Positions 5,792 through 58,436 are shown, numbered from the stretch's first letter. The stretch is 64,000 nt of DNA from Betaproteobacteria bacterium (GCA_947457885.1 CANGXU010000001.1:34471-98470); one strand, 5' to 3'. Numbers and translations: made by a program. Notes: generated by a model not told the origin, from the letters alone.

Positions 5792-5831
5792 GGTCGTGCC
5801 TAGCATACAGGACTGTTCCGGGCCCTCCACC

Positions 5832-7160: not shown

Positions 7161-7167
7161 GCGGCAG

Positions 7168-11983: not shown

Positions 11984-12005
11984 TCGCGCTTCGTACCGGT
12001 CTCGG

Positions 12006-17800: not shown

Positions 17801-18391
17801 GCCCCGGCGCCGGATCCGCGGATGAACACGCCGCTGGATATCTGCGTCCCGGCGACAGCGTCGCCGGCCGTTCTCAACCGCGCAGGGGTCCGCTACGGAG
17901 AACTGTTCCATGCGCTGATGGAGCACCTGACTGGATCGGCCCCGATGTGCGAGCCGATGACCGACGGGTCGATGGCCGCACGCATCGCGCGCCTGGATGC
18001 GCCGATGCGCGAGCGGCTGCGCGAAGCCCTGGGCGCTGGCGCGTCCGAATTCGATGCGTTGTGGCAGCAGGCGCTGCGCTTGCTGGCCAGTCCTTCGCTC
18101 GCATGCTTCTTCGATCCCGCGCTCTACCTGCGCGCGCGCAACGAAGTGCCCTACCTCGACGCGACCGGCGCATTGCGCAGGGTGGACCGGCTTGTCGAGT
18201 TCGACGACGCGGTCTGGGTGATCGACTACAAGACCGGCGACCCGTCGGCGCTGGCGCCATGGCTCGATGTGTACCTGGCGCAGGTCGGGGCGTATGCCGC
18301 TGCGATGGTGGCGCTGCACCCCGGCAAGTCCGTGTCCGCCGCGCTGATGCTCGGTGATGGCTCGCTGGTGCGCTGGACGCCTTCCGTATAA
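14888..18391 (+). CDS. addA: AddA-type UvrD/Rep superfamily-1 helicase with C-terminal nuclease
   Basis: Start MSDQHELV at 14888. Motifs: Walker A ACAGSGKTW, FTRKAAQEM, LLLDEFQDTNPLQW, GDPKQSIYRFRGA, TIHGAKGLE, and C-terminal VWVIDYKTG. The ORF-track start at 14345 lies inside addB. Confidence 0.85.
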   Translation: MSDQHELVRTALDPQHSVVVSACAGSGKTWLLVSRMFRLLLDGAPPSSILAITFTRKAAQEMTARLDRLLQDAAMADDEVLDRLLQERDVALPADAVAREALRERARCLFERVLTAEPPLTVSTFHGWFLQLVQRAPLEAGTLSGHSLTEEGAALVAEAMQRFGAKAARSAPLAAALDQLFAQCGLEPTQSMLRSFIANRASWWAMTRDEAEPLQAIIGVLAKALPAPLCDDPSIDLLLPERGDEGLLRDLEAYRELLARNNTGKNDNQRAALLDEAAACADPLRWHGLVRAALYTKGGDGPPFKYEANDTRRNRLGVEGEARFLDLFASITTRLDALAALLCEQQSYRFNVATFTCAVALLAEYDAVKQQRQAIDFADLEQQACRLLTDDDHAACVHARLDARYRHLLLDEFQDTNPLQWMALRAWLDAAQAAGEKPTVFLVGDPKQSIYRFRGAEALLFDAARDFLVAHFDARVLDQDRSRRCSGPVIDLVNALFEGHGVFAGFRTHEAFDRRKPGCVEVLPMIGKADPKPRTPADAGVTLRDPLDGPRAEAEDLRVAQEAAQLVEGLRRWRGHAVIGDDGNPRPARWRDMLVLVRTRGRLDVYERALRDAGIPCSSSRLGGLLDTLEVRDMVALLRFLVAPHDGLALAHVLRSPVFSLADADLVEIVSFGAVPAADGSVQPCAPPDLYRRLCERAAAPGAGACIRRAASLLGRWFGLAGTRPVHDLLDAVFFEGDVLARYRAAVPVSAAASVEANLHALIEHALSADAGRFPTLARFVDDLRDLADLPAQEALDEPVAGDAGEAVRFMTIHGAKGLEAPIVWLLDTASKSPPQRGYQSLVEWPADEPSPAHFSFWTREAAMCAVQRDVFERAKARAAREEMNLLYVAVTRAKQVLVVSGHHRSGADNAWYPLLRQAVLRLRGDSEDPGGVLGFGPGLPVPSGMAGGGCAAADALRPHAGSWPALDPACAPAPDPRMNTPLDICVPATASPAVLNRAGVRYGELFHALMEHLTGSAPMCEPMTDGSMAARIARLDAPMRERLREALGAGASEFDALWQQALRLLASPSLACFFDPALYLRARNEVPYLDATGALRRVDRLVEFDDAVWVIDYKTGDPSALAPWLDVYLAQVGAYAAAMVALHPGKSVSAALMLGDGSLVRWTPSV

Positions 18392-23838: not shown

Positions 23839-25053
23839 TCAGCGGGCCTTCAATCGCCATAGCGATACCCGCTCGGCCGCGCGGGCTGCATGGAGCGGAT
23901 CGCGCGGATCGCCCGCCTTCGCATGCGTCGGCCGCGTATCGATACGTTCCACCACGGCCAGACCACCTGCGTCGATCATCGTCTCGAGCTCCGCCCGGCT
24001 GCGCAGGCCGAGGTGCTCGGCAAGGTCGGACAGGACGAGCCAGCCCTCGCCGTCGGGCGCGAGGTGGTCGGAAAGACCTGCTAGGAAGCCGCGCAGCATC
24101 CGGCTGTCCGGATCGTAGATCGCTTGTTCCAGTGCCGAACTCGGCCGCGCCGGAACCCATGGCGGATTGCAGACGACAAGAGGTGCTCGTCCGGGGGGGA
24201 ACAGGTCGGCGTCCACCACCTGTACCCTGCGCTCCAGGCCCAGACGCGCCAGGTTTTCGCGCGCGCAGGCGATGGCGCGCGGATCCTTGTCGGTCGCGAC
24301 GATCCGTTCGACGCCGCGGCGCGCGAGTACGGCCGACAGCACGCCGGTGCCGGTGCCGACGTCGAAGGCGAGCGGTACTCCACCTGTTGGCAACGGCGCC
24401 ATGGATACCAGCTCGACGTATTCGCCGCGGACCGGCGCGAACACACCGTAATGCGGATGGATACGCTCGCCCATGGCGGCGATTTCCACGCCGTTCCGGC
24501 GCCATTCATGCGCTCCGATCAGCCCGAGCAGCTCGCGCAGGGAGGCTACATAGGGCTCGTGCGCCGGGCCGTAGGCTTCCTCGCAGGCTGCGGCAACGTC
24601 AGGTGCCCGGCGAAGCGGTATCACGTGCCCCGGTTCGAAGGGAATCAGCAGCATTCCCAGCGTGTGCGCGCGCTGGGCCTGTGCCATCCGGTGCCGATGG
24701 AACGCCTCGGCCGGTGCCGGCGCCTCGGTGGCAGCGCTCAGTGCCGACTTCGCGCGGCCACGTGCCTTCGCCCGTGCGCGTGCCTTGACCTTCGCCGGCT
24801 TGCGATCGACCCGGCGTGCCAGCGCGATCAGCAGGTGTCGTGCATTCTGGAAGTCGCCCTGCCAGACCAGCGCCGTGCCCTCGCTCGCCAGCCGATAGGC
24901 GGTGTCGGCGGGTGTGGTGTCGTCGACGGCCACTACCCGTCTTGGTGGCGCAGTGCCGTTCTCCGACCGCCAGCGGACCGATTGCGGTCCATCGGGTCCG
25001 TTCCAGGCGAGGACGGGATGACCGGCGGCGGGAAGTTCGTGAGAGATCGTCAT
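23839..25053 (-). CDS. Class I SAM-dependent methyltransferase (NPPW motif) with uncharacterised N-terminal half
   Basis: Start MTISHEL at 25053. Motif I is FDVGTGTGVLSAVLA; motif IV is VVCNPPWVP. The N-terminal 170 aa include a KVKARARAKARGRAKS basic tract. Confidence 0.8.
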   Translation of the reverse strand: MTISHELPAAGHPVLAWNGPDGPQSVRWRSENGTAPPRRVVAVDDTTPADTAYRLASEGTALVWQGDFQNARHLLIALARRVDRKPAKVKARARAKARGRAKSALSAATEAPAPAEAFHRHRMAQAQRAHTLGMLLIPFEPGHVIPLRRAPDVAAACEEAYGPAHEPYVASLRELLGLIGAHEWRRNGVEIAAMGERIHPHYGVFAPVRGEYVELVSMAPLPTGGVPLAFDVGTGTGVLSAVLARRGVERIVATDKDPRAIACARENLARLGLERRVQVVDADLFPPGRAPLVVCNPPWVPARPSSALEQAIYDPDSRMLRGFLAGLSDHLAPDGEGWLVLSDLAEHLGLRSRAELETMIDAGGLAVVERIDTRPTHAKAGDPRDPLHAARAAERVSLWRLKAR

Positions 25054-25156
25054 GCCCCGAGTATGCGCGATGTGCGCGAGGCCCGGATGCTGGACAAAAG
25101 ACAGGCGCATGAGCATGATCGATGGCACAGAAAAAACGACCCTCAGGAGGATATGG

Positions 25157-26146
25157 ATGCCATCTGGAAGACCTGTTGCCGCTGTCGCGCGGCCCGTTCT
25201 GCTGTCGCTGCTGATGGCCTTCGGCGCGGTGCTGCCCGCGGCGCACGCGCAGCTCCAGTTCCCGGTCAAGCCCATCCGGCTGATCGTCGGCAGCGCAGCC
25301 GGCTCGGGTCCGGACATCATCGGGCGGGCGATGGCCGATCGGCTCGGCGAGACCTGGGGCCAGCGGATGATCGTCGACCCGCGCCCAGGTGCCGCTGGTG
25401 CCATCAGCGCGGACCTCGCGATGGCGGCCGTGCCGGACGGCTACACGATGATGATGCTCACGTCGCAGTTGTTCGTCGCATCGCAGGTGCTGACCGGCCT
25501 GAAGTTCGACCTGAGCCGCGATTTCCAGTCGATCGCGTTGATCGGTACCGTGCCGTTCGTCCTGCTGGCGAACACGCAGGTGCCGGCGAAGACGCTGAGG
25601 GAGCTCGTCGAGCTCGCCCGCAAGGCGCCTGGCACGCTACGTTACGGCTCCGCCGGCACGGGTGCGTCCGAGCACCTGTCGGGCGTCCTGCTGACCCAGT
25701 TGACCAGGACCGACATGCTGCACGTCCCCTACAAGGGCGTACCACAGGCGATCGCCGATGCGATGGCCAACGAGGTTCAGGTCACGTATGCGGTGGTGCC
25801 CGCGGCCATCCCGCACGTGCAGTCGGGTCGGTTGCGCGCACTCGGCGTGACGACGCCGGTGCGCGCGCCGCTGCTGCCCGATGTGCCATCCATTTCCGAA
25901 GTGGTACCGGGCTACGCGATGTACGGCTGGTACAGCATCGTCGCGCCGACCGGAACGCCCCCTGCGGTACTAAACCAGGCCAGCGCTGAAATGGTGCGGG
26001 TGATGAAGGAACCCGCATTCGGCGAGCGCCTGAAGGCGCTCGGCGTCGACCTGGTCGCCGGCGACCGGCAGGTGCTCGACAAATGGCGTTCCGAGGAACT
26101 CCAGCGCATCCGCGCGGTAGTCAAGATGGCGGGTGCAAGGCAATAA
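25157..26146 (+). CDS. Bug/TctC-family periplasmic tripartite tricarboxylate transporter substrate-binding protein (paralog 1)
   Basis: AGGAGG-N6-ATG at 25157. Signal peptide is followed by FPVKPIRLIVGSAAGSGPDIIGR...PRPGAAG...PYKG. Confidence 0.9.
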   Translation: MPSGRPVAAVARPVLLSLLMAFGAVLPAAHAQLQFPVKPIRLIVGSAAGSGPDIIGRAMADRLGETWGQRMIVDPRPGAAGAISADLAMAAVPDGYTMMMLTSQLFVASQVLTGLKFDLSRDFQSIALIGTVPFVLLANTQVPAKTLRELVELARKAPGTLRYGSAGTGASEHLSGVLLTQLTRTDMLHVPYKGVPQAIADAMANEVQVTYAVVPAAIPHVQSGRLRALGVTTPVRAPLLPDVPSISEVVPGYAMYGWYSIVAPTGTPPAVLNQASAEMVRVMKEPAFGERLKALGVDLVAGDRQVLDKWRSEELQRIRAVVKMAGARQ

Positions 26147-36726: not shown

Positions 36727-37710
36727 GTGATACACGTGAGCAGGAGATCGTCATCCATCGTTGCGCTGGCCGCCATCGGATTGTGCGGGGCCGGCAATGC
36801 CACCGCACAGCCCGCCTGGCCTGCGAAGCCAGTGCGGCTCGTGTTGCCGTTTCCGCCCGGCGGTGGCACCGACATCCTGGGCCGGACGCTGGCCCTGCGC
36901 CTCGGCGATGCGCTGGGCCAGCCGGTGCTGACCGACAATCGCCCCGGTGCTGGCGGCAACCTCGGAGCCGAGATGGTCGCCCGGTCGGCGCCGGACGGCT
37001 ATACCGCCGTGCTGGTCGCACCAGGCTTCGTGATCAGCCCGAGCATGTACCGCAAGCTCGGCTTCGATCCGTTCAAGGACTTCGAACCGGTGTCGCTGGT
37101 CGCGTGGATCCCGAACCTGCTGGCGGTGCATCCCTCGCTGCCGGTGCAGAACGTGAAGGAACTGGTCGCCTATGCGAAGGCGAACCCGGACCGGCTGAGT
37201 TACGGCTCCGGCGGCGTCGGGACGTCGAACCACCTGGGTACCGAACTGCTCGCGGTACGCACCGGCACCCGCATGGTACATGTGCCGTACAAGGGCGCGG
37301 CCACCGCGATGATGGATACCGTCGCCGGCAACGTGCACCTGATCACGATCGGCACCGGTGCCGCGCTGGCGCAGGTCAGGGCGGGCAAGCTGCGTGCGCT
37401 CGCGACGCTCACCCCGGCCCGCGTGCCGAATGCACCGGAGATCCCGACCATCGCCGAGGCGGGCTTTCCCGGGCTTGAGGTACTGACGTGGTATGGCGTG
37501 TTCCTTCCGGCGAAGACGTCGAGGCAGATCGTCGATCGCATGAATTCGGAACTTTCGCGGCTGATGTTCGAGCCTGAGGTGCGCGAGCGACTGTCGAGCA
37601 TCGGCGCCGAGCCGATGAAGAGCACGACAGCCGAGACGGCCCGGTTCATCCGCGAGGAATACAAACGCTGGGCTGAGGTGATCAAGGCCGCGAAACTGCA
37701 GATGGACTGA
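36727..37710 (+). CDS. Bug/TctC-family substrate-binding protein (paralog 3)
   Basis: GTG start at 36727 or, with better SD spacing (GGAGG-N8), at 36736. WPAKPVRLVLPFPPGGGTDILGR...NRPGAGGNLG...PYKG. Confidence 0.9.
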   Translation: MIHVSRRSSSIVALAAIGLCGAGNATAQPAWPAKPVRLVLPFPPGGGTDILGRTLALRLGDALGQPVLTDNRPGAGGNLGAEMVARSAPDGYTAVLVAPGFVISPSMYRKLGFDPFKDFEPVSLVAWIPNLLAVHPSLPVQNVKELVAYAKANPDRLSYGSGGVGTSNHLGTELLAVRTGTRMVHVPYKGAATAMMDTVAGNVHLITIGTGAALAQVRAGKLRALATLTPARVPNAPEIPTIAEAGFPGLEVLTWYGVFLPAKTSRQIVDRMNSELSRLMFEPEVRERLSSIGAEPMKSTTAETARFIREEYKRWAEVIKAAKLQMD

Positions 37711-37714
37711 TGCG

Positions 37715-38752
37715 ATGACGATACCGAGATGTGGATGGCGGGTCCCGGCGGCTGCAGGCGCATGCGGTCGGCGGCAGGGCATGGAAGTGGGCGCGGCGCT
37801 CGCGCTCGCGTGCGCGATGCTGCCGGTGGCCAGTGCTTTCGCCGCGGGCACGGTGGCGTTCCCGACGCGCCCGATGCGGATCATCGTGCCCTTCGCGCCG
37901 GGCGGTCCGACCGATGTCGCGGCGCGGGTGATCGGGCCGAAGATGAGCGATGCCTGGGGCCAGCCGGTCGTCATCGACAACCGTGTCGGTGCGGGTGGCA
38001 ACATCGGCATGGCGCTGGCCGCGAAGGCACCGCCCGACGGCCATACGGTGCTGTTCACCAGCAGTTCGGTCGTGGTCAACCAGACGCTGTTCAGCAAGCC
38101 GGGCTACGACGTGTTCAAGGATCTGGTCGCGGTGACCCGCGCAAACACCACGCCCAACATCCTGGTCGTGCATCCCTCGGTTCCCGCGAAGAACCTGACC
38201 GAACTGATCGCGCTGGTGCGGGCCAATCCGGGCAAGTACAGCTATGCATCGCCCGGGACGGGTACCACCGGCCACCTCAGTTGCGAGATGCTTCGCGTGG
38301 CGACGAAGATAGATATTCAGCATGTACCGTTCAACGGGGCGGCACCCGCGGTGACTTCCATCGTGGGTAACCAGACGCCGATCGGCTGCCTCGGCCTTCC
38401 GCCGGCACAGCCGCAGCTGAAATCGGGTGCGCTGCGCCCGATCGCGGTGACCAGTGCCCAGCGCTGGAAGCAGAACCCCGACGTGCCGACGATGGTCGAG
38501 AGTGGCTTCCCCGGCTTCGTCAACGACCTGATGACCGGCGTGTTCCTGCCGGCCGGCACGCCTGCGGCGATCGTCAACCGGCTGCAGGCCGAGATCGCCC
38601 GCATCGTGATGCTGCCCGATGTGCAGGACCGGCTCGGCCCGCTCGGATTCGAACCGGTGGCCAATACCCCGGCCCAGTTCGCACGGCAGGTGCGCGAGGA
38701 GGTCGAGATGTATGGCAAGGTCATCCGCGAGGCGAACATCAAGTCAGACTGA
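37715..38752 (+). CDS. Bug/TctC-family substrate-binding protein (paralog 4)
   Basis: ATG at 37715 (alternative 37781). FPTRPMRIIVPFAPGGPTDVAAR...NRVGAGGNIG. Begins 4 bp after paralog 3. Confidence 0.9.
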   Translation: MTIPRCGWRVPAAAGACGRRQGMEVGAALALACAMLPVASAFAAGTVAFPTRPMRIIVPFAPGGPTDVAARVIGPKMSDAWGQPVVIDNRVGAGGNIGMALAAKAPPDGHTVLFTSSSVVVNQTLFSKPGYDVFKDLVAVTRANTTPNILVVHPSVPAKNLTELIALVRANPGKYSYASPGTGTTGHLSCEMLRVATKIDIQHVPFNGAAPAVTSIVGNQTPIGCLGLPPAQPQLKSGALRPIAVTSAQRWKQNPDVPTMVESGFPGFVNDLMTGVFLPAGTPAAIVNRLQAEIARIVMLPDVQDRLGPLGFEPVANTPAQFARQVREEVEMYGKVIREANIKSD

Positions 38753-38795
38753 CCCCGGGACCCTTCGTCCCGGCGCGTCCAACGAGGAGAATGAA

Positions 38796-39803
38796 GTGAA
38801 TACGAATCGACCCGCACGTCGAGCCATCCTTGCGACCGGTGCGCTGCTGGGCGCAGCTTCCCTGATGCAGACCGCACCCGTGTTCGCGCAGGGCAAGGCT
38901 GCGGACGTGTTTCCCTCCCGGCCGGTGCGCATGATCGTTCCGTTCGCGCCCGGCGGCCCGACCGATATCGTGGCCCGACTGCTCGGACAGCGCCTGGGCG
39001 ATCTCTGGGGCCAGACCGTCCTGATCGACAACCGGGCGGGGGCCGGTGGCAACCTCGGCGTGGAAATCGCGGCCCGTGCGGCACCCGATGGCTACACCAT
39101 CCTGGTCACGAGTTCGAGCTTCGTGGTCAACCCTGCGCTGTACGAGAAGCTGCGCTGGGATCCGTTCAAGAGCTTCGTGCCGGTGACCAATGCCGCGACT
39201 TCGCCGAACCTGATCGTCGTGCACCCGTCGGTGCCGGCGAAGTCGATGAAGGACCTGGTCGCGCTGGTCAAGTCCCAGCCGGGCAAGTTCAGCTATGCGT
39301 CGCCCGGCCTGGGCACCACGCCGCAGCTGTCCTGCGAGATGCTCAAGGCGATCGCGGGCGTGGACATCCAGCACGTGCCCTACGGCGGCGCTGGCCCTGC
39401 GACCACGTCGGTGGTGGGGAACCAGAATCCCGTGGGGTGCATGGCCCAGCCGCCAGCCGTGCCGCATGTGCAGGCCGGCAAACTGCGCGCGCTCGCCATC
39501 ACCAGCGCGAAGCGCTCGGCGAGCCTCCCCGATGTACCGACCATGGTCGAGCAGGGCTTCACGAACTTCGTCACCGACAACATGAACGGCGTGTTCCTGC
39601 CTGCCGGTGCAGCGCCGGCGCTGGTCGCGCGGCTGCATGCCGACATCCTCAAGGCGCTGGCCACGCCGGACCTGCGCGAGCGCTTGCAGGCGCAAGGGCT
39701 CGAGCCGGTGGGCGACACGCCGCAGGCCTTCGCGGCCTACGTGAAGCAGCAGATCGCGCAGTGGACGAAGGTCATCAAGGACGCCGGGATCAAGGTGGAA
39801 TGA
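38796..39803 (+). CDS. Bug/TctC-family substrate-binding protein (paralog 5), twin-arginine-like signal
   Basis: GAGGAGA-N5-GTG at 38796. VNTNRPARRAILATGALLGAASL... then FPSRPVRMIVPFAPGGPTDIVAR...NRAGAGGNLG. Confidence 0.88.
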   Translation: MNTNRPARRAILATGALLGAASLMQTAPVFAQGKAADVFPSRPVRMIVPFAPGGPTDIVARLLGQRLGDLWGQTVLIDNRAGAGGNLGVEIAARAAPDGYTILVTSSSFVVNPALYEKLRWDPFKSFVPVTNAATSPNLIVVHPSVPAKSMKDLVALVKSQPGKFSYASPGLGTTPQLSCEMLKAIAGVDIQHVPYGGAGPATTSVVGNQNPVGCMAQPPAVPHVQAGKLRALAITSAKRSASLPDVPTMVEQGFTNFVTDNMNGVFLPAGAAPALVARLHADILKALATPDLRERLQAQGLEPVGDTPQAFAAYVKQQIAQWTKVIKDAGIKVE

Positions 39804-40879
39804 TGAGGCCGATCGGCCTGGGCATCATCGGCGCGGGCCGCATCGGTACCCTGCGCGCACGGCTCGCAGCGAAGCACGCTGGAGTGCGGTTCATTGCGGT
39901 TTCCGACAGCGACCCGAAGAACGCGGCGCGTACGGCGGGGCTTTGCGGTGCCGCGCTGCACGGTACCGACAACGACGCGATCATCGACCATCCCGAGGTG
40001 GACGCGGTGATCGTGTCGACGCCGGAAGGCGAGCATCTGGCGCCGGTGCTGCGCGCGATCGCGGCGGGCAAGCCGGTGCTGGTCGAGAAGCCGGTCGCAC
40101 TCACGCTTGCCGATGCTGACCGGGTGATCGCCGCGGCGCAGAAGGCTGGCACCGACCTGCGGGTCGGCTACAGCCGCCGCTACAAGGACCGCTACCTGAT
40201 CGCGCGCGAACAGATCCTGCAGGGCCGTATCGGGAAGATCCTCGGCGCCTCGGCCCGCGTGTTCAACTCGCGCGCGCAGGCGCTGGCGATGATGGGGCGC
40301 AACCCCCATGCGACGCCGGTGGTCGATGCGCTGACGTACTACGTCGACCTGATCGGCTGGTTCCTCGACGGCGAGCCGTTGCGCGAGGTGTATGCCCGCG
40401 GTCAGAAAGGGGTGCTCGCAGCTGCCGGCCATGCCGCGGACGATGTCGACTTCGCGCTGCTGACCTATGAGCGCGGCACCGTCGTCAATCTCACCGTCAG
40501 CTATGCACTCCCATCGATGTACCCGGCGCTGGGCCATGCCGCGCGTGTCGAACTGATCGGCGACCAGGGCGTGATGATCCTCGACGACGACCACACCGAC
40601 CAGCTGATGTATTCCGAGAAGGGCATGCCGCACGTGTACCTGCCCGACCATAACGTCAATATGGTGTTCCTGCAGAGCGGCACGCCCGGCGATTGGGCGC
40701 TGGGGGAGTTCTGGGGGCCGATCGCCAACGAGACGAGGGCCTGGCTGGATTTCCTCGTGCTCGGATCGCCCTGTGTGCTGCCCGATGGGCGTACCGCGCG
40801 TGCGACACTCGAAGCGACGCTGGCAATCGAAGCCTCTGTCGCTTCTGGCGGCGCGATACACCTCCCGCTGGCCGGGTGA
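39800..40879 (+). CDS. Gfo/Idh/MocA-family NAD(P)-dependent oxidoreductase
   Basis: MMRPIGLGIIGAGRIG...VSTPEGEHLAPVLRAIAAGKPVLVEKP. The start overlaps the preceding stop (ATGATGA). Confidence 0.88.
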   Translation: MMRPIGLGIIGAGRIGTLRARLAAKHAGVRFIAVSDSDPKNAARTAGLCGAALHGTDNDAIIDHPEVDAVIVSTPEGEHLAPVLRAIAAGKPVLVEKPVALTLADADRVIAAAQKAGTDLRVGYSRRYKDRYLIAREQILQGRIGKILGASARVFNSRAQALAMMGRNPHATPVVDALTYYVDLIGWFLDGEPLREVYARGQKGVLAAAGHAADDVDFALLTYERGTVVNLTVSYALPSMYPALGHAARVELIGDQGVMILDDDHTDQLMYSEKGMPHVYLPDHNVNMVFLQSGTPGDWALGEFWGPIANETRAWLDFLVLGSPCVLPDGRTARATLEATLAIEASVASGGAIHLPLAG

Positions 40880-40890
40880 ACGGGAGACGG

Positions 40891-41871
40891 ATGAAGACGA
40901 TGCATGGTGCGAAAGTTCGGATGTCGACGGCGCTCGCGGTCGCCCTGGCGGCTGCGGCGCCCGTCGCCGCACAGCCGGCCTGGCCGTCGAAGCCGGTGCG
41001 GATGATCGTCGCGTTCGTCCCCGGCGGCGGCACGGATATCGTCGCGCGCATGCTGGCACCGCGCTTCGGCGAAGCGCTGGGGCAGACGATGGTGATCGAC
41101 AACCGCGGCGGGGCTGGCGGCAATATCGGCACTGAAGTCGCCGCTCGCGCGGCCGCCGATGGCTACACGCTCCTGATGGGCAACGTGGCGCCGAACGCGA
41201 TCAACGTCAGCCTGGCGCCGGTGCCGTTCGATCCGGTCAAGGATTTCGCGCCGATCTCGCAGGTGGCGATCACGCCGAACGTGCTGGTCGTGCACCCGTC
41301 GCTGCCGGTGAAGACGGTCAAGGAACTGCTCGCGCTGGCCCGGGCGAAACCCGGGGCGCTCGCTTTCCCTTCTGCCGGCAACGGCACGTCCTCGCACCTT
41401 GCCGGAGAACTGCTGAAGAACCTGGCGAAGATCGACATGCTGCACGTTCCGTACAAGGGCGGTGGTGCGGCGCTGGCCGACCTGATGGGCGGGCAGGTAC
41501 AGTTGATGTTCGCGACCACGCCGGCGGCGATGCCGCTGGTGAAAGCCGGTCGCCTGCGCGCGATCGCAGTCACGACCCGGGCGCGTTCCCAGGCCCTGCC
41601 CGAGCTGCCGACGATGATCGAGGCCGGGGTGCCGAACTATGACGCGGCAACCTGGTACGGCCTGCTCGCGCCGGCGGCGACGCCGCGCGGGGTGATCGAC
41701 CGGATGCATGCCGAGACGGTGAAGATCATCGGTACGCCGGACATGCGCGAGAAGCTCATTGCGCAGGGGTTCGAGCCGGTGGGCAGTTCGCCGGCGGAGT
41801 TCGCTGCGTACATCCAGGCGCAGATCGAGACCTGGGCGAAGGTGATTCGGGCGGCGGGCTTGCGGTCGTAG
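40891..41871 (+). CDS. Bug/TctC-family substrate-binding protein (paralog 6)
   Basis: GGAG-N4-ATG at 40891. WPSKPVRMIVAFVPGGGTDIVAR...NRGGAGGNIG...PYKGGG. Confidence 0.9.
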   Translation: MKTMHGAKVRMSTALAVALAAAAPVAAQPAWPSKPVRMIVAFVPGGGTDIVARMLAPRFGEALGQTMVIDNRGGAGGNIGTEVAARAAADGYTLLMGNVAPNAINVSLAPVPFDPVKDFAPISQVAITPNVLVVHPSLPVKTVKELLALARAKPGALAFPSAGNGTSSHLAGELLKNLAKIDMLHVPYKGGGAALADLMGGQVQLMFATTPAAMPLVKAGRLRAIAVTTRARSQALPELPTMIEAGVPNYDAATWYGLLAPAATPRGVIDRMHAETVKIIGTPDMREKLIAQGFEPVGSSPAEFAAYIQAQIETWAKVIRAAGLRS

Positions 41872-49536: not shown

Positions 49537-50676
49537 ATGGTGTTGTATCTGACGATCGGCTTGCCCGTGCTTTGCATCATCGCACTCAAGGGCAGCACCG
49601 TGGTGGTTTCCCTCTACGCGCTCGAGCTCGGCGCGGGCTCGGCAACGATCGGCATCCTGATCGGGCTGTATGCGTTGTTCCCGACGCTGCTCTCGGTCGC
49701 ATCCGGGCGGTTGCTCGACCGGGTCGGCTACCTGCCGCCGATCGCCTGGGGCAGCGTCGGCGTCATCGGCGGGCTGCTGGTGCCGGTGCTGATGCCCAAC
49801 ATGATCGGGCTCGTGATCTCGGCGGCGCTGCTCGGTCTGTCGAACGTGTACTTCATCGTGCCGATGCAGAGCCTGGTCAACCGCATTGCCACGGGCGCTG
49901 ATCGCGCGCGCAACGTCGCCAACTTCAGTCTCGCGGTGTCCATCGGCCAACTGGTCGGGCCAGTACTTGCGGGCTTCCTCATCGACGCGATCGGCCACCG
50001 GTTCTCGTACCTTGTGCTGGCGATGCTGCCGCTGGGCACGCTCGCCATGCTCTACCGTATGCGCGATGCGCTGCCGCCGAAGCCGGGCGCCGATGGCCCG
50101 GTCGAGAAGCCCGACCTGCTCGGCATGCTGTCCAACCGCGGATTGCGCGCGATCTTCATCACCAGCGCGATCGCGGTAGCCAGCTTCGACCTGTACTCGT
50201 TCTTCCTGCCGATCTATGGCCACTCGATCGGTCTCTCGGCCTCTGCGATCGGGCTCGTGCTGGGCACGTTCGCCGCGGCCGCCTTCGTGATCCGCGCGAT
50301 CATGCCCTGGCTGATCAAGCGCATGGGCGAGGCCGGGCTGCTGGTGCGCTCGCTGCTGTTGTCGGGGATCGCCTACCTCCTGTTCCCGTTCGTCAGCAGC
50401 GTGTGGCTGCTCGCGCTGCTGTCGTTCGTACTCGGGCTGGGGGTGGGCTGCGGACAGCCCCTGACGATGATGATGTGCTACAACCGGGCCCCGCCGGGGC
50501 GCTCGGGCGAGGCGCTGGGCGTGCGCTTCACCATCGTCAACCTCACCCACATGACGATCCCGGTGCTGTTCGGCACGATGGGCGCGGCACTCGGTCTTCT
50601 CTTCGTGTTCTGGGCCAAGGGCGCGCTGCTGGTCGGTAGCGCTGCGGCCGGATCGGTCCTGGAGCGCCGGCGTTGA
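49537..50676 (+). CDS. MFS transporter (paralog A)
   Basis: 379 aa, about 12 TM segments, GRLLDRVG loop 2-3 motif. This is the only start codon in frame after the upstream stop at 49462. Confidence 0.88.
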   Translation: MVLYLTIGLPVLCIIALKGSTVVVSLYALELGAGSATIGILIGLYALFPTLLSVASGRLLDRVGYLPPIAWGSVGVIGGLLVPVLMPNMIGLVISAALLGLSNVYFIVPMQSLVNRIATGADRARNVANFSLAVSIGQLVGPVLAGFLIDAIGHRFSYLVLAMLPLGTLAMLYRMRDALPPKPGADGPVEKPDLLGMLSNRGLRAIFITSAIAVASFDLYSFFLPIYGHSIGLSASAIGLVLGTFAAAAFVIRAIMPWLIKRMGEAGLLVRSLLLSGIAYLLFPFVSSVWLLALLSFVLGLGVGCGQPLTMMMCYNRAPPGRSGEALGVRFTIVNLTHMTIPVLFGTMGAALGLLFVFWAKGALLVGSAAAGSVLERRR

Positions 50677-51869
50677 CCATCGTTCATGTGACGATGATCG
50701 TCATGCTCACCCACCTGGGGGTGATCGGTGCGAAGCTGCTGCTCGCCCTGTTCGCCATCGACCTTGGCGCCTCGCCGGTGCAGGTGGGCCTGACCTTCGC
50801 CCTGTTCTCGATCCTGCCGGCGATCTTCGCAATCAGCGCGGGGCGCTGGGTCGACCGCATCGGCGTGCGGGCGCCGCTGCTGATCGGCTGCGGCGGTGCC
50901 GGTCTCGCGATCACCGTGGTGTTCTTCGCGCCGGGACTGTGGGCGCTTTATCCCTGCGCGGCCCTGATCGGCGTGTTCTTCATGGTCTACGCGGTCGCCG
51001 GCCAGAGCCTGGTCGGCAGCCTCGGGGAGACAAGCGACCGCACGCGCAACTTCAGCTACTACTCGCTCGCGGTTGCCCTGGCCGGCGTGATCGGCCGGGC
51101 CGGCACCGGTGCGTCGATCGACCTGATCGGCCATCGCGCGACCGCGCTGGTGCTCGCGTTGGCTCCGCTGGCCGCGCTGGCCATGGCGTGGTGGCTGCGC
51201 TCGCGCACGCCGGTGGCTCTCTCCCCGTCGGAACGTCCGCCGCGCGCATCGGTCCGTGACCTGTGGAAGATCCCGGCGCTGCGCCGGGCGCTGATCGCGG
51301 CGGCGATCGTCGAGTCGGGCAATGAGCTGTTCGCGCTGTTCATTCCGCTCTACGGTTCATCGCTCGGGCTGTCGGCCACCTTCATCGGCATGCTGCTGGC
51401 GACCTATGCCGCTGCAACCTTCGTGGTGCGCATCGCACTGCCGCGCCTGGTCGCGCGTTTCGGAGAAGAGGGAGTGCTCTGCGGCGCCCTCGGCTGCGCC
51501 GCCCTGGTCGGCATGCTGTTGATCAGTACCGCGCAGCCCTGGGCGCTGCTCGCACTGGCTGCCGCGTTCGGGTTCTCGCTCGGCTGTGGCATGCCGCTGT
51601 CGATGGCGCTGACCTACGCGCGTGCCCCTGACGGGCGCGCCGCGGAGGCGATCGGCATGCGCCAGACGGTGAACAAGTCGATCGAAGTGACCGTTCCGGT
51701 CTGCTTCGGTGCACTGGCCGGAGTCGCCGGGCTGGCGCCGCTCGCGGTAGCCCTGAGCGTTGTGCTCGCGGTCGGCGCGGGCGTGATCGCACGCGACGCG
51801 CGCCGGCGCCCGTCGCCGCCAGGGCCGGCGCGGTCCAGGCCGCGATCAGGACCCGGGGCGCACCGATGA
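50673..51869 (+). CDS. MFS transporter (paralog B)
   Basis: Colinear with paralog A (GRWVDRIG). A TTG at 50673 overlaps the upstream stop (TTGA). Alternative starts are GTG 50688 and ATG 50694. Confidence 0.85.
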   Translation: MTIVHVTMIVMLTHLGVIGAKLLLALFAIDLGASPVQVGLTFALFSILPAIFAISAGRWVDRIGVRAPLLIGCGGAGLAITVVFFAPGLWALYPCAALIGVFFMVYAVAGQSLVGSLGETSDRTRNFSYYSLAVALAGVIGRAGTGASIDLIGHRATALVLALAPLAALAMAWWLRSRTPVALSPSERPPRASVRDLWKIPALRRALIAAAIVESGNELFALFIPLYGSSLGLSATFIGMLLATYAAATFVVRIALPRLVARFGEEGVLCGALGCAALVGMLLISTAQPWALLALAAAFGFSLGCGMPLSMALTYARAPDGRAAEAIGMRQTVNKSIEVTVPVCFGALAGVAGLAPLAVALSVVLAVGAGVIARDARRRPSPPGPARSRPRSGPGAHR

Positions 51870-53179
51870 AGTTCCTGTCCGACCAGCTTGCGCCCGGCGT
51901 GCGCCCGCGCGAGGCGGTGTCGTGGGCGATGTACGACTTCGCGAACTCGGGTTACACCACGGTGGTGGTGACCGCCGTGTTCAACGCCTATTTCGTCGGC
52001 GTGGTCGCCGCCGGCCATTCTTGGGCGACCTTCGCTTGGACGATGTCGCTCGCGGTGTCTTACGCCGCGACCATCCTGCTCGGTCCGCTGATCGGCACCT
52101 ATGCCGATCTGTACGGATGCAAGAAGCGGCTGCTCCTGTTCACCACCATCGGCTGCGTCCTCTTCACCGCTTCGCTGGCGCTGGTCGGTCGCGGCGATAT
52201 CTGGCTGGGTATTGTGCTGGTCGCGCTGTCGAACCTGTTTTTCAGCCTTGGCGAGAACCTCGCGGGGGCCTTCCTGCCCGACATCGCACGGCCGGAATCG
52301 CTCGGGCGGCTGTCCGGCTGGGGGTGGTCGGTCGGCTACCTCGGCGGGCTGGTCAGTCTGGCTGCAAGCCTTGCGTGGGTGTCGCATGCGCAGGTTGCCG
52401 GGCATGGCGGCGATGCCTTCGTGCCCGTGTGCATGCTGATCACGGCGGTCATCTTCGCGCTGGCCTCGCTGCCGGCCTTTCTGTTCCTGCGCGAGCGCAG
52501 CACCGTGCAGCCACCCGCGGCCGGCGATTCGATTCCGTGGCGGGCCGCCTTCACGCAGTTCGGGCACTCGCTGCGTTTGCTGCGCAGCTTCCCCGACCTG
52601 CGGCGCTTCCTCTGGTGCATCGTCTGCTACCAGGCTGGTGTGCAGACTGTGGTGGCGCTGGCCGCCATCTATGCCGAGCAGGTGCTGAAGTTCGAAACCG
52701 CCGACACGATCAAGCTTATCCTGCTGGTCAACATCACCGCGGCGGCCGGAGCGGCAGCCTTCGGGCAGGTGCAGGACCGGCTCGGACATGCACGCACGCT
52801 GGCGATAACGCTGTTCGGCTGGCTGCTCGCGATCGGACTCGCCTGGGCGTCGACCGGACCAGGCATGTTCTGGATCGCCGCGAACGTGGTTGGCATCTGC
52901 CTGGGCGCCAGCCAGTCCGCAGGGCGCGCACTGGTCGGCTACTTCAGTCCGGCCGAACGCCGCGCCGAGTTCTTCGGTCTGTGGGGCGTCGCGGTCAAGC
53001 TGGCCTCTATCCTCGGTCCCGTCAGCTACGGGCTGGTGAGCTGGGCCTCCGGCGGCGAACACCGCCTGGCGATGCTGATCACCGGCGCGTTCTTCATCGC
53101 CGGACTGGCCGTGCTGCGCTCGGTGGATGTGGCGCGCGGCCGTTGCCGGGCGCTGGTGCCGGCACCGATTCTGTCCTGA
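51866..53179 (+). CDS. MFS transporter, UMF1 (Atg22-like) family
   Basis: WAMYDFANSGYTTVVVTAVFNAYF is the UMF1 N-terminal signature. The start overlaps the upstream stop (ATGA). Confidence 0.85.
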   Translation: MKFLSDQLAPGVRPREAVSWAMYDFANSGYTTVVVTAVFNAYFVGVVAAGHSWATFAWTMSLAVSYAATILLGPLIGTYADLYGCKKRLLLFTTIGCVLFTASLALVGRGDIWLGIVLVALSNLFFSLGENLAGAFLPDIARPESLGRLSGWGWSVGYLGGLVSLAASLAWVSHAQVAGHGGDAFVPVCMLITAVIFALASLPAFLFLRERSTVQPPAAGDSIPWRAAFTQFGHSLRLLRSFPDLRRFLWCIVCYQAGVQTVVALAAIYAEQVLKFETADTIKLILLVNITAAAGAAAFGQVQDRLGHARTLAITLFGWLLAIGLAWASTGPGMFWIAANVVGICLGASQSAGRALVGYFSPAERRAEFFGLWGVAVKLASILGPVSYGLVSWASGGEHRLAMLITGAFFIAGLAVLRSVDVARGRCRALVPAPILS

Positions 53180-53293
53180 CCTGCACGAAGTCTGCCGGGA
53201 TGTCCGTGACATATGCCCTCGAAACAGGTGCGGCCTGATGTTAGCGTGAGAAGTTGAAGAGTCTTATGGCGGCGTCGCCGCTGCCCACGCGGA

Positions 53294-54841
53294 ATGGATG
53301 TCAAGATGTTCGGATGGACTGCCGACGAGCCGGACCACCCGCTGGCCGATCCGCACACGGCGCGCCAGATCATCAACGAGCTGCGCGGTGGAGACCCGGT
53401 CTCCCAGCTGGACGAAGCCATTGGTCACCTCGAGTCCCTGCCGCGCGTCGAGGGCTTCCGGCTGGTCAGGCTTTACGAGGTTATCGACCTGCTCGACCAG
53501 GCAGCCAAGCCGCACCAGCGGCGGATCACCGCCGACTACATCGGCGCATCACGCCTGGCGCACCATCAGGAGAACCGTCTCTGGAAGTCCGCTGCCGACT
53601 TCTGGCGCTCGCTTGCGCAGGCCTACCTGCGTTGCCTCGAGATCTTCCGGTCGAATCCGAAGGAGGCCCGCACCTTCGACGCGATGCTGCCGATCTGCTG
53701 CGCGCGCGTGATGCGGGCGCTCGGAGCCGAGGTGAAGTGGCTGTTCCTGCGTCACGGGCCGGTGCCGCAGCACCTGTGGTCGCATGCCTCCAGCGCCTTC
53801 GCGCTCGCGGAGGCCAGCGGTATCGCGCTGCAGCCGATCCGTGTCTACGAGGTCTCGCACAGCGATACGACGGTGCAGCAGGAATACCTGCGCCTGCTGG
53901 TCCTGGGGGCAGCCTCCACCGACACGCTGCATCCGGCGCAGTTGGAACTCGCCGAGCGCGCGATTGCGTGGTTCTCGCGCAGCTTCGTGCTGAGCGCGAA
54001 CCGCAGTGGCGAGACCACGCACTACGTCGATCTTGCTGCCCGGCGTCCGCCGGCACGGCTCATGCAGTCGGTGGCGCCAGCTCCCAGCCTGCGCTACTTC
54101 GGGATATCGAAGGCCCGTGCCGAGATCGTCTCGCTGCTGCGCGTGGTGAAAGAGCGGGAATTGATCCCCGAGTCGGTGCTCCTCGGGGAATTGCATTCTG
54201 TGCCGCTGGTCATCACGACCCTGGAACACCTGCTGCGCGAGTTCGGCGCCCGTGCGCCGGCGCGCATTCGCGAGCGCCGCGCAGGCGCCGTGCGCCTGAT
54301 GGTCGCCCACGGCTACAGGGCGGTGCTCGAAACCATCCAGCGCGATGCGCGGCGCGAGCCGCTGCGGTCGATCGACATCGAGACATGGATGGCCGCCGAC
54401 TCGAGCCCGGGCGGCTACGGCGCGACGATCCGCTACATGCGTGGTGACTGGGTGAAGCTGGGTGCGTTCGTGGGCATCAAGCTGGAAGAGGCGCCCTACT
54501 GGGGTATCGGTGTCGTGCGCCGGATCAACCGCGCGAACGAGACCGACCACCATGTCGGTGTACAGCTGCTGGCAGCAGCGGCGTTGCCGGTCGAACTCAT
54601 GCCTGCGCCGCAGGAGCCGACGGTCGACGCCGAGCCGCGGCACGCGCTGCTGCTGTCGGAGCGCCCGGACGAAAACGGTGAGGTCGACCTCGCGATCGAG
54701 GTTGGCGCCTTCTCGAGCAGCGTCCGCTTCATCGTCAGGATCAAGGACAAGCCCTATCTGCTGGTGGCTTCGCGTCTGGTGGAGGCGGGGGATGACTTCG
54801 ATATCGCCCGCTTCAGGGTGCAGCGCACCCAGGCTGCCTGA
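53294..54841 (+). CDS. Hypothetical 515-aa protein; C-terminal region with a PilZ-like RxxxR...DxSxxG pattern
   Basis: Clean ORF with good GC3. Residues about 320-430 read RIRERR / RDARR ... DSSPGGYGATI ... GIGVVRRI ... HVGVQLL. I cannot assign the N-terminal 300 aa. Alternative start is at 53306. Confidence 0.7.
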   Translation: MDVKMFGWTADEPDHPLADPHTARQIINELRGGDPVSQLDEAIGHLESLPRVEGFRLVRLYEVIDLLDQAAKPHQRRITADYIGASRLAHHQENRLWKSAADFWRSLAQAYLRCLEIFRSNPKEARTFDAMLPICCARVMRALGAEVKWLFLRHGPVPQHLWSHASSAFALAEASGIALQPIRVYEVSHSDTTVQQEYLRLLVLGAASTDTLHPAQLELAERAIAWFSRSFVLSANRSGETTHYVDLAARRPPARLMQSVAPAPSLRYFGISKARAEIVSLLRVVKERELIPESVLLGELHSVPLVITTLEHLLREFGARAPARIRERRAGAVRLMVAHGYRAVLETIQRDARREPLRSIDIETWMAADSSPGGYGATIRYMRGDWVKLGAFVGIKLEEAPYWGIGVVRRINRANETDHHVGVQLLAAAALPVELMPAPQEPTVDAEPRHALLLSERPDENGEVDLAIEVGAFSSSVRFIVRIKDKPYLLVASRLVEAGDDFDIARFRVQRTQAA

Positions 54842-54850
54842 ACGTCTGTT

Positions 54851-55549
54851 TCAGCCAGCCAGCACCCTGACCAGCCAGTCGCGGATATCGATTACTTCCT
54901 GAGGGTGCACCGAGTGCGGCATCCGGTACTCGTGCCATTCGACCGGGTAGCCCAGCGCCTGCAGCCGTTCGACCGACGCGTTCGCCATTTCGATCGGAAT
55001 GACAGGATCCGCCGTGCCGTGCGCGAAGAAGACCGGCACCTGCCGGTTGGCTTCTGCTGCTTCGGCCGGCAGCGACTCTCCCAGTGGCAGGTAGGTCGAC
55101 AGCGCCATGATCCCGGCCAGGCGGCGGGCATGGCGCAGGCCGGTCGCAAGCGCGATCGCGCCGCCCTGGGAGAAGCCTGCGATCGCGATCCGTTCAGACG
55201 CCACGCCGCGCCTTACCTCGCGCTCGATCAGGCGCTCGATGTGCGCGATCGACGCGCGCACACCAGCCTCGTCCGGACGGCGTGAGCGGCCTTCCAGGTC
55301 GCCGAAGGCCACGTCGTACCAGGCCCGCATCACATGGCCGTTGTTGATCGTCACCGGCTGCATCGGCGCATTCGGGAACACGAAGTTCACCGCCAGAGAC
55401 GGTGGCAGCCGCAACTCGGGCACGATCGCCTCGAAGTCGTGGCCATCGGCGCCCAGCCCGTGCATCCAGATCACCGCGGCCTGCGGGATCGAGCCTTTCG
55501 GCCCGGTGGCGAGTTCGATCGTTTCGAGCAGTTCGGTCGATGCCGACAT
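54851..55549 (-). CDS. Carboxylesterase/phospholipase-type alpha/beta hydrolase (esterase II-like)
   Basis: Start MSASTELLE at 55549. WMHGLGADGHDF, nucleophile elbow GFSQGGA, then HGTADPVIP and the catalytic His in MPHSV. Confidence 0.88.
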   Translation of the reverse strand: MSASTELLETIELATGPKGSIPQAAVIWMHGLGADGHDFEAIVPELRLPPSLAVNFVFPNAPMQPVTINNGHVMRAWYDVAFGDLEGRSRRPDEAGVRASIAHIERLIEREVRRGVASERIAIAGFSQGGAIALATGLRHARRLAGIMALSTYLPLGESLPAEAAEANRQVPVFFAHGTADPVIPIEMANASVERLQALGYPVEWHEYRMPHSVHPQEVIDIRDWLVRVLAG

Positions 55550-56221: not shown

Positions 56222-57241
56222 CTATTCGATCCGGATGCCGGCCTCTCGTCCGATCCGGCTCCAGCGCGCGAGCTCGGCGCGCAGGTATTCCCCGAAGGCC
56301 TCCGGCGTGCTTGCCACCGGTTCGGCCCCCTCGGCGGTGAGCCTCTCCACGGCATCGGGCTGGCGCAGGATACGGCCGATCTCGCTGCTCATGCGACCGG
56401 TGATTTCCTTTGCGGTGCCGGCCGGGGCGAGGATGCCCTGCCAGGCGCTGATCTCGTAGCCATCCAGCCCGCTCTCGGCGACGGTCGGCAACTGTGGTGC
56501 GAACGCGGTGCGCTTCGCGGTGGTCACCGCGATCGCGCGCAGCTTGCCGGTCTTCACGTGCGGCAGGAACTGGTGCGCGATGCCGAACGTCATCGATACC
56601 TGTCCGCCAAGCAGGTCGGTCAGGGTCGGCGCATTGCCCTTGTAGGGCACGTGGATCATGTCGGTCTTCGTGAGCCAGGTGAACATCGCCGCCGCCATGT
56701 GAGGCGAGGTGCCATGGCCGGAGCTGGCGTAGGTCAGCTGCCCGGGCCGTGCCCGGGCGAGTGCTGCGAGTTCCTTCACCGTCTTCACCGGCAGCGAGGG
56801 ATGTACGACCAGCATCAGCGGCAGCGACACCAGTTGCGTGACCGGCGCGAAGCTGCGTATCGGGTCGAAAGGCAGGTCCTTGCGCATCCCGGCATTGATC
56901 GGGAAGGCGATGGTCATCATCAGCATCGTGTAGCCGTCGGGCGGTGCCTTGGCCACGAGTTCGGCGCCGATCATGCCGCCCGCGCCCGGGCGGTTGTCGA
57001 CCACCACCGTCTGGCCGAGGGGTTCTGCCAGACGCTGCGCGACCAGACGGCCGATGTTGTCCGTGGTGCCGCCGGCCGCGAATGGAATCACCAGTCGCAG
57101 CGCTCTTGCCGGCCATGCCTGTGCGGGCGAGGGCTGCGCTGCGGCGACCGGCGCATCCGCGAGTGCGGCGAGCCCCAGCAGGGCCGCCGCCAGTACGGGT
57201 CCCGGGCGGGGTGAATGGCAGATGCCAGCGGGATCGCTCAT
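56222..57241 (-). CDS. Bug/TctC-family substrate-binding protein (paralog 7)
   Basis: WPARALRLVIPFAAGGTTDNIGR...NRPGAGGMIG...PYKGN. Confidence 0.9.
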   Translation of the reverse strand: MSDPAGICHSPRPGPVLAAALLGLAALADAPVAAAQPSPAQAWPARALRLVIPFAAGGTTDNIGRLVAQRLAEPLGQTVVVDNRPGAGGMIGAELVAKAPPDGYTMLMMTIAFPINAGMRKDLPFDPIRSFAPVTQLVSLPLMLVVHPSLPVKTVKELAALARARPGQLTYASSGHGTSPHMAAAMFTWLTKTDMIHVPYKGNAPTLTDLLGGQVSMTFGIAHQFLPHVKTGKLRAIAVTTAKRTAFAPQLPTVAESGLDGYEISAWQGILAPAGTAKEITGRMSSEIGRILRQPDAVERLTAEGAEPVASTPEAFGEYLRAELARWSRIGREAGIRIE

Positions 57242-57319
57242 GGTTGCGCCTCCTGGTGGGGTCGGGCGGCGGTCGTTGCCACAGCCTCGGAGTCCGATGC
57301 AGCCGCACGTTACGCAGAA

Positions 57320-57355
57320 GCCCGCAGGCCGTCAACGCGCCTCGACCCTGCGGGC
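57320..57355 (-). terminator. Hairpin GCCCGCAGG-N18-CCTGCGGGC just after the REC-GGDEF stop
   Basis: 9-bp perfect GC-rich stem starting 14 nt downstream of the stop codon on the minus strand, followed by TTCTGCG (weak U-tract). Confidence 0.4.
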
Positions 57356-57368
57356 CTTTGGGTAACGT

Positions 57369-58436
57369 TCAGCAGATGGTGGAGGCGGATGGCGCAGGGG
57401 CCTCGCGCAAGCCGGTACCGTCCTCGTCTGGCATGGCGGCGCAACCGCGGCCATTCATCTGCGCCCGGCGCAACCCGGCTTCGGCCAGCGAGAGCAGATC
57501 CTGAAAAGACTCTGCGCCCGGCGAACTGGCGGCCACGCCCAGGCTTATCGTGCACACCGCCGCGACATCGGAGCCGGCATGCGGGATGTCGAGTGCGCGT
57601 ATCCGACTCTCCAGCGCCTGTGCCAGTGCGAGCGCACCCGTGGCAGAGGTGTCCGGCAGGATGCACGCGAACGCGTCGCCTCCGTAACGCGCGAACGTAT
57701 CGCCGGCGCGCCGTATCCGACCTTCCAGGGCAGCTGCGATCAGCCGCAGGCAGTCGTCGCCGGCCGGGTGTCCGTAATGCTCGTTGTATTGCCGGAATCG
57801 GTCCACGTTGATCATGAGCATGGCGAGCGACGTGCCGCTGCGCTGCGCGCGCGCGAACTCGTGCTCGAGCCGCTCGTCGAAGCAGCGCCGATTTGCGGCA
57901 CCGGTGAGTGCATCGGTGCGGGTCAGCTCGCGCAGCATGTCGGACTGTCGCTTGATCGTGAGGTAAGCCTTTGAACGTGCACGGACGATCGCCGGGTTGA
58001 ACGGCTTGACGATGAAGTCGACAGCGCCCGCCGCGAGGCCGCGCACTTCCGCCGCGCTGTCGTCCTGACCGGTGACGAACATCACGGGGATGTCGCGCGT
58101 GGCCGGGTCGGCCTTCAGCCGTTCGCAGGTCTGGTAGCCGTCCAGCCCGGGCATCACCACGTCGAGCAGCACGAGATCGGGTTGTCTTTCCCGACATACC
58201 GTAAGGGCTGCCTCGCCACTCGTTGCCATGAAGACCTGATAGTCGCCGGAGAACGTGTGATAGAGCGCCTGCACGTTCAGCGGGTTGTCGTCTACGACCA
58301 GGATGCGCTGCCGTTCGTCGCGCGAATCCCGGGTGTCGGACTGCGGGGGCGTGGACCTGCGTGGCTCCGTGGATTCCATCTCGTCGGCGTGCTTCGGTAA
58401 AACCGTCTGCATCGGGTGCCTGAAACTCGCAAGCAC
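57369..58436 (-). CDS. Response regulator: REC domain fused to a GGDEF domain with degenerate GGDAF active site and intact RxxD I-site
   Basis: REC motifs: ILVVDDNP, LVLLDVVMPGLDG, VKPF. GGDEF domain: ...RRAGDTFARYGGDAFACIL. Codons GGA GGC GAC GCG TTC were verified on the minus strand at 57669-57683. Start is GTG 58436, ATG 58412 or ATG 58379. Confidence 0.88.
   Translation of the reverse strand: MLASFRHPMQTVLPKHADEMESTEPRRSTPPQSDTRDSRDERQRILVVDDNPLNVQALYHTFSGDYQVFMATSGEAALTVCRERQPDLVLLDVVMPGLDGYQTCERLKADPATRDIPVMFVTGQDDSAAEVRGLAAGAVDFIVKPFNPAIVRARSKAYLTIKRQSDMLRELTRTDALTGAANRRCFDERLEHEFARAQRSGTSLAMLMINVDRFRQYNEHYGHPAGDDCLRLIAAALEGRIRRAGDTFARYGGDAFACILPDTSATGALALAQALESRIRALDIPHAGSDVAAVCTISLGVAASSPGAESFQDLLSLAEAGLRRAQMNGRGCAAMPDEDGTGLREAPAPSASTIC

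Follow-up and report, generated by a model that had tools for sequence, protein, structure and literature searches.

A compact betaproteobacterial member of the FimW family with a cryptic PilZ domain is a probable c-di-GMP receptor

The gene and its features

We analyzed a 64,000-nucleotide stretch of DNA from a Betaproteobacteria bacterium (GCA_947457885.1 CANGXU010000001.1:34471-98470; hereafter the window, with positions counted from its first letter), centering on an open reading frame (ORF) at 53294-54841 on the plus strand. An original prediction, made from the sequence alone, had tentatively described its product as an orphan protein of novel architecture that binds cyclic di-GMP (c-di-GMP) through a PilZ-like C-terminal module. 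The ORF proved to be well formed, as described: it translates to 515 amino acids (aa), and its GC content at third codon positions (GC3) of 0.85 is that expected for the coding frame in a window of 68% GC. The true start is probably the ATG at 53306, which gives 511 aa, and not 53294, because all homologs begin with MFGW and a 100% identical database protein (P0001) is 511 aa long; starting at 53294 adds four residues (MDVK) that are seen in no homolog. As set out below, the protein belongs, as a distant and compact betaproteobacterial representative, to the FimW family, whose prototype and Pfam entry have already been described, and we refer to it as the FimW-like protein. Its features, with residue numbers in the 515-aa numbering (start at 53294), are the following.

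53180..53305, +, upstream spacer of 126 bp between the third major facilitator superfamily (MFS) gene and the FimW-like gene (GC content; promoter and terminator scan)
53306..54841, +, FimW-family gene, probable extent, 511 aa plus stop (homolog starts, P0001, GC3)
53351..54241, +, N-terminal FimW_N domain, mostly helical, residues ~20-316 (precomputed PF27104 on homologs, AlphaFold helices, FimW alignment)
54263..54277, +, RxxxR motif, R324-I-R-E-R328 (conservation, FimW alignment, model)
54278..54604, +, predicted PilZ-type beta-barrel, residues 329-437 (AlphaFold strands, Foldseek)
54314..54349, +, predicted inserted helix between strands 1 and 2, residues 341-352 (AlphaFold)
54398..54415, +, (D/N)xSxxG motif, D369-S-S371-P-G-G374 (conservation, FimW alignment, model)
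54509..54523, +, GVVRR family signature on barrel strand 5, G406-R410 (conservation)
54638..54826, +, predicted C-terminal second beta domain of five strands, residues 449-511 (AlphaFold, FimW alignment)

Conserved motifs and predicted fold

The C-terminal part of the protein contains the strings RIRERR (324-329), RDARR (350-354), DSSPGG (369-374), GIGVVRRI (404-411), and HVGVQLL (419-425), and thus both halves of the proposed PilZ signature, RxxxR at R324/R328 and DxSxxG at D369/S371/G374. In an alignment of 185 diverse homologs, R324 and R328 are each kept in 179 sequences, S371 in 174, and G374 in 180, while position 369 is occupied by D or N in 181 (94 D and 87 N), a near-equal split that agrees with the PilZ consensus (D/N)xSxxG. 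The motifs are therefore conserved among homologs, each of their positions being kept in 174 to 181 of the 185 sequences, and the two arginines of the GVVRR signature (R409 and R410) are retained in 181 sequences each. The arginine motif had originally been assigned to both RIRERR and RDARR; the former holds, with R324/R328 as the conserved pair, whereas RDARR is part of a non-conserved inserted helix and is irrelevant to the motif. The spacing from R328 to D369, 40 residues where ~20-30 is canonical, is as unusual as had been remarked, but it no longer stands as a doubt: it results from the insertion of helix 341-352 between strands 1 and 2, and the loop at this point varies in length and is gapped across the family alignments.

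Structure prediction places these motifs on a PilZ-like barrel. The full-length AlphaFold model, built from a 32-sequence alignment, has a mean predicted local distance difference test score (pLDDT) of 89.9 and a predicted template modeling (pTM) score of 0.86, with pLDDT values of >90 for the N-terminal helices (residues 20-316); a separate model of residues 316-515 (the C-terminal 200 aa) has a pLDDT of 88.3. In the model, R324 and R328 lie directly before strand 1, which begins at residue 329, and the second motif spans the turn from strand 2 to strand 3, with D369 and S371 closing the former and G374 opening the latter; the strands of the barrel run from 329 to 437 and are followed by five more (449-511), forming a C-terminal beta domain devoid of a c-di-GMP motif. 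Foldseek searches of the PDB with both models returned as top matches almost only c-di-GMP-binding PilZ proteins, namely, PA0012 (8u0i; template modeling [TM] score of 0.75 on the target and probability of 1.00), the YcgR PilZ domain (5y6g; probability of 0.99), BcsA (4p00), MotI/DgrA (5vx6), MrkH (5ejl and 5kgo), VCA0042 (2rde), PlzA (7mie), Alg44 (4rt0), and the CeSA PilZ domain (4i86). It is the consistency of this list, and not any single score, that supports the predicted fold. For the N-terminal domain, the Foldseek matches in the PDB were limited to helical repeats at low probability, none of them convincing as a structural relative. PF07238 (PilZ) weakly matched 10 of the 91 family members scanned (best E = 1e-3) and was the only Pfam family to match more than one of them. 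Together with the family-wide motifs and the fold matches, this recurrent weak match supports the C-terminal PilZ-type c-di-GMP-binding module that had been proposed.

The arrangement of the domains sets the protein apart from the better-known PilZ receptors. It shares with single-domain or embedded PilZ receptors (PA0012/TssZ, 8u0i; Alg44, 4rt0; BcsA, 4p00; YcgR PilZ, 5y6g) a beta-barrel that carries (D/N)xSxxG and has RxxxR just ahead of its first strand (TM scores of 0.5-0.75 normalized to the target and Foldseek probabilities of 0.96-1.00). However, these have neither the helix between strands 1 and 2 nor the large helical N-terminal domain seen here, they are only 11-18% identical, and the window protein falls below the PF07238 threshold. 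The two-barrel proteins (two-barrel YcgR; MotI/DgrA, 5vx6; MrkH, 5ejl; VCA0042/PlzD, 2rde; PlzA, 7mie) resemble it in having two consecutive beta domains in the C-terminal 200 residues, and 205-219 columns can be aligned with MotI, MrkH, VCA0042, and PlzA; the root mean square deviation of 11-15 Å in these alignments indicates that the relative orientation of the domains is not common to the predicted structure and the two-barrel PilZN-PilZ effectors. In YcgR-type proteins, moreover, a motif-less PilZN domain precedes RxxxR and the PilZ domain, whereas here the order is different: a 300-residue helical domain lies upstream, the PilZ barrel comes first of the two beta domains, and the motif-less one follows it downstream.

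Family membership and homology to Pseudomonas aeruginosa FimW

Neither the designation as an orphan nor the lack of a family for the first 300 residues was upheld. FimW_N (PF27104), a curated Pfam family, is listed as a precomputed match on P0001 and on all full-length homologs and accounts for this region; the annotation is precomputed, and the model is newer than the Pfam copy that we scanned. A word-indexed search recovered 44 relatives of ~510 aa, and an exhaustive search with a profile through 1.84 billion cluster representatives (clusters at 50% identity) recovered 5,542 at a threshold of E <= 1e-3 and 1,060 at one of E <= 1e-30, so that "orphan" holds only in the sense that the gene has no obvious operon partner. 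Two more word-indexed searches, with profiles A1 and A3, brought in no new members, and the names that they returned were uninformative. The named members, looked up in NCBI and JGI records, are from metagenome-assembled genomes of Rhodocyclaceae, Burkholderiales, and other Betaproteobacteria and are all labeled "hypothetical protein." A tblastn search of plasmids gave no match. The sole Pfam match of the protein in our scan, Phage_Bbp19 (E = 0.1), was judged spurious.

The prototype of the family, P. aeruginosa FimW (PA4958), is described in several papers as a c-di-GMP-binding effector counted among the PilZ domain proteins (PMC11656802, PMC12564702, PMC10335732, and PMC10212136) and is credited to a first report by Laventie et al. 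in 2019 (as cited in PMC11656802, PMC12564702, and PMC10212136). According to the same three sources, the rise in c-di-GMP after surface contact leads to polar accumulation of FimW, which promotes type IV pilus assembly, a behavior known only from P. aeruginosa; one review adds that FimW dimerizes and moves to the poles (PMC10212136). The fimW gene adjoins fimX in P. aeruginosa, PA4958 being FimW and PA4959 being FimX (PMC10335732).

Primers for quantitative PCR of PA4958, printed in PMC7814656, allowed a FimW sequence to be located in metagenome contigs. The forward primer occurs in ten loci, in 6 of which the reverse primer is also found. In one of these (L021) both primers match exactly, 309 bp apart, inside an ORF of 607 aa (6358-8181) that is preceded by motB-motA-HDOD-rhodanese-psd and followed by a 691-aa PAS-GGDEF-EAL gene (fimX) and then by serB. 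Given the exact primer pair and the adjacency to fimX, the sequence identifies this ORF as a P. aeruginosa-type fimW. The order motB-motA-HDOD-rhdA-psd-fimW-fimX-serB is one that we take to be PA4953-PA4960, backed by the primer matches and by the identities of PA4958 (FimW) and PA4959 (FimX); the PAO1 locus numbers around PA4958 did not turn up in a literature search. The spacing of the primers in L021 (6561-6869) differs from the 256 bp given for the PA4958 pair in Table 1 of PMC7814656, where the printed product sizes repeat in a pattern and the size column looks shifted or unreliable. A distant family member with both FimW_N and FimW_C (P0244) served as the query for a scan of species genomes, and the ortholog in Pseudomonas sp. 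FEN (L014 6001-7698) lies in the order motB-motA-HDOD-rhodanese-psd-[gene]-serB...parC. Thus, fimX stands beside fimW in L021 and not in Pseudomonas sp. FEN, though both share psd-fimW-serB, so that even within this genus the two genes are not always paired.

The window protein and FimW are homologous from end to end. In hhalign, the profile of 91 family sequences (positions 17-516) aligned with residues 25-581 of the L021 FimW over 487 columns (probability of 99.4%; E = 6.8e-22), and a family profile aligned equally with the Pseudomonas sp. FEN ortholog, which is 62% identical to the L021 FimW (99.5%; E = 2.5e-22). The hidden Markov model of 185 family sequences matched the L021 FimW with 124.7 bits over profile positions 14-504 of 509 (hmmsearch), and BLASTP with the window protein itself gave two colinear segments (E = 2e-6 and 6e-6). 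The FimW_N region aligns with residues 25-320 of FimW, the C-terminal region aligns too (hhalign) though it is without a listed FimW_C, and the motifs have their counterparts, with ERTFQR for R324/R328, NHSPGG for DSSPGG, and AVVRW for GVVRR. Hence, the architecture is not novel: both proteins combine a helical N-terminal domain, identified as FimW_N, with RxxxR, a PilZ barrel bearing (D/N)xSxxG and a VVR(R/W) strand, and a C-terminal beta domain, in colinear homology over their full length. They also share the absence of a PF07238 match (at E <= 10 for the window protein and at E <= 1e-4 for FimW, in the same Pfam copy); FimW itself being missed in this way, a cryptic PilZ domain is characteristic of the family as a whole. 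The differences are that the loop between strands 1 and 2 is ~90 residues in FimW versus ~25 here (i.e., ~65 longer), that FimW is a 607-aa ORF versus 511 aa here, that FimW_C is absent from the precomputed Pfam matches of the window clade, and that the psd-fimW-fimX-serB setting is replaced by MFS transporters and an alpha/beta hydrolase.

Genomic context

The FimW-like gene is preceded by three MFS transporter genes on the same strand (49537-53179, +); these have overlapping stop and start codons at 50673/50676 and 51866/51869, and the third is ATG22-like. The 126-bp spacer that follows has 59-60% GC, and the minimum over 100 bp within it, 0.54, equals the minimum for the region from 45 to 62 kb, so that the earlier remark that this is the lowest-GC intergenic stretch of the region is roughly right. 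Neither a consensus sigma-70 promoter nor a terminator was found in it. Downstream, a convergent Abhydrolase_2 gene (-) has its stop 9 bp from that of the FimW-like gene (54841-54851), and no terminator-like hairpin is seen between the two stops. Relatives at 65% and 39% identity preserve the order MFS(ATG22-like)-FimW-like-...Abhydrolase_2-MoCF-...DarP-PmbA, with the MFS triplet, or at any rate its ATG22-like member, immediately ahead of the FimW-like gene; in more distant relatives the MFS/Abhydrolase_2 order breaks down. An operon that includes the upstream MFS genes is a minor alternative, given the lack of a promoter or terminator consensus in the spacer and the loss of the adjacency in distant members.

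A gene for a response regulator with a GGDEF domain (57369-58436, -) is located 2.5 kb away. Its position and its GGDAF motif are as originally recorded, but its relevance is not sustained, since other regulators stand in its place in the closest long homologous locus; a functional link was dropped, the gene not being conserved next to homologs. Its protein reads GGDAF against the usual GG(D/E)EF, and an RxxD string (RAGD) lies five residues upstream, at the usual position of the inhibitory I-site; judging by these residues, it may bind c-di-GMP and be catalytically inactive instead of acting as a cyclase.

Elsewhere in the window, two large adjacent ORFs at 11955-18391 (+) resemble an AddAB/RecBCD-like helicase-nuclease pair, one with a PD-(D/E)XK nuclease domain and the other with a UvrD helicase and a PD-(D/E)XK domain. 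Glycogen/alpha-glucan genes, for a GlgB-type branching enzyme (-) and a glycoside hydrolase of family GH57 (+), are found at 3467-8862, where they adjoin the 3' part of a gene for an AcrB-type resistance-nodulation-division (RND) pump at the window start. Five paralogous TctC-family ("Bug"-type tripartite tricarboxylate transporter receptor) genes are present within the 64 kb:

25043-26146, +, TctC-family gene
37682-38752, +, TctC-family gene
38610-39803, +, TctC-family gene
40654-41871, +, TctC-family gene
56222-57331, -, TctC-family gene

Expansion of this family is typical of Burkholderiales-like Betaproteobacteria, and it fits the Rhodocyclaceae and Betaproteobacteria names of the closest matches.

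Proposed function and alternative explanations

From the homology, the predicted fold, and the motif conservation, we infer that the gene product is likely a cytoplasmic FimW-family receptor for c-di-GMP, in which a helical FimW_N domain of ~300 residues is followed by a PilZ barrel and a small C-terminal beta domain. The receptor function originally proposed is thus supported by the fold, the motifs, and the relationship to FimW, with ligand binding being predicted. The geometry of the ligand in PilZ domains is established from structures such as those of VCA0042, PA4608, YcgR, and Alg44. By comparison with such solved complexes, c-di-GMP would be clamped between R324/R328, on the linker that leads into strand 1, and D369/S371/G374 of the barrel. 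Binding would then change the arrangement or the oligomeric state of the protein, and FimW_N, the presumed output or interaction domain, would engage a partner. By analogy with FimW, the output would most likely be to regulate a polar machine of the cell envelope, for example type IV pili.

Several observations weigh against a FimW-family receptor. The suggested hmmscan check gave nothing for the protein itself, with no match to PF07238 even at E <= 10 or to the PilZN families; NCBIfam likewise gave no match, and sequence and profile searches of PDB chains produced chance-level matches only. The Foldseek E-values are modest (best, 3e-3 to 4e-3), with identities of 5-18%, and FimW_C (PF27125) is listed on P0036 and P0244 only and not on P0001 and its near relatives. 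An RxxxR followed 12-60 residues later by [DN]xSxxG arises in 3.7% of shuffles of this Arg-rich protein, and [DN]xSxxG alone arises in 10%. Taken alone, the motif pair is hence weak evidence, within chance, and it is conservation, fold, and homology that make it real; a fortuitous pair in an Arg-rich protein of unrelated function is effectively refuted by the column-wise conservation, the position on the predicted PilZ barrel, and the FimW homology, and we consider it extremely unlikely. The motifs are also lost in a few very distant family members (e.g., P0043), and this, along with the non-canonical spacing of 40 residues with its inserted helix and the lack of a PF07238 match above the threshold, is what might be seen if a PilZ-like fold had lost c-di-GMP binding and served as an adaptor, as do P. 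aeruginosa PilZ (PA2960) and the type II PilZ proteins of Xanthomonas. However, both motifs are intact here and kept in 94-98% of the 185 homologs, which also show the alternation between D and N that is typical of PilZ domains competent for binding; the prototype FimW, whose motifs are the same and whose loop is longer still, reportedly binds c-di-GMP. All this makes such an adaptor improbable.

The output is more evenly balanced. Type IV pilus assembly, assigned by analogy, has roughly an even chance of being the output, because identity to P. aeruginosa FimW is only ~17-30%, fimX is absent, and the gene setting is different. Among the larger ORFs scanned in the window there is no pilus gene, fimX, or other PilZ gene, and no fimX or pilus gene lies beside the homologs inspected. 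The long loop insertion of Pseudomonas FimW is missing as well, and accounts of the fimW phenotype in P. aeruginosa themselves disagree, some describing near-wild-type twitching and another no visible pili. A FimW-family c-di-GMP receptor with a different output, such as transporter regulation or another envelope process, is accordingly a possibility, which we hold only tentatively. It would fit the lack of fimX and pil genes nearby, the distance from the Pseudomonas prototype (~17-30% identity and no long loop), and the fact that in this betaproteobacterial clade the FimW-like gene always comes after the ATG22-like MFS gene, the arrangement with the convergent Abhydrolase_2 gene being common to the window and to the homologs at 65% and 39% identity. 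Against it, the adjacency is lost in distant members and may be plain lineage synteny (MoCF, DarP, and PmbA are also kept), the 126-bp gap to the MFS gene shows no sign of co-transcription, and the presumed output domain, FimW_N, matches that of Pseudomonas FimW along its whole length.

Significance

A FimW-family receptor at this locus opens no new class; it is a case in which a cryptic PilZ domain, missed by both PF07238 and NCBIfam, was recognized from raw sequence. Its immediate value is for annotation, in that members now labeled "hypothetical protein," the name that NCBI mostly gives to the family, can be relabeled as FimW-family c-di-GMP receptors, and the compact version could be a more tractable structural target for the coupling of c-di-GMP binding to FimW output. 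It is conceivable, if somewhat doubtful, that the compact clade, which lacks the long loop and fimX and whose gene follows the ATG22-like MFS gene, couples c-di-GMP to a non-pilus process; were this true, FimW_N would be the general output domain of a widespread, largely unannotated receptor family of ~5,500 clusters.

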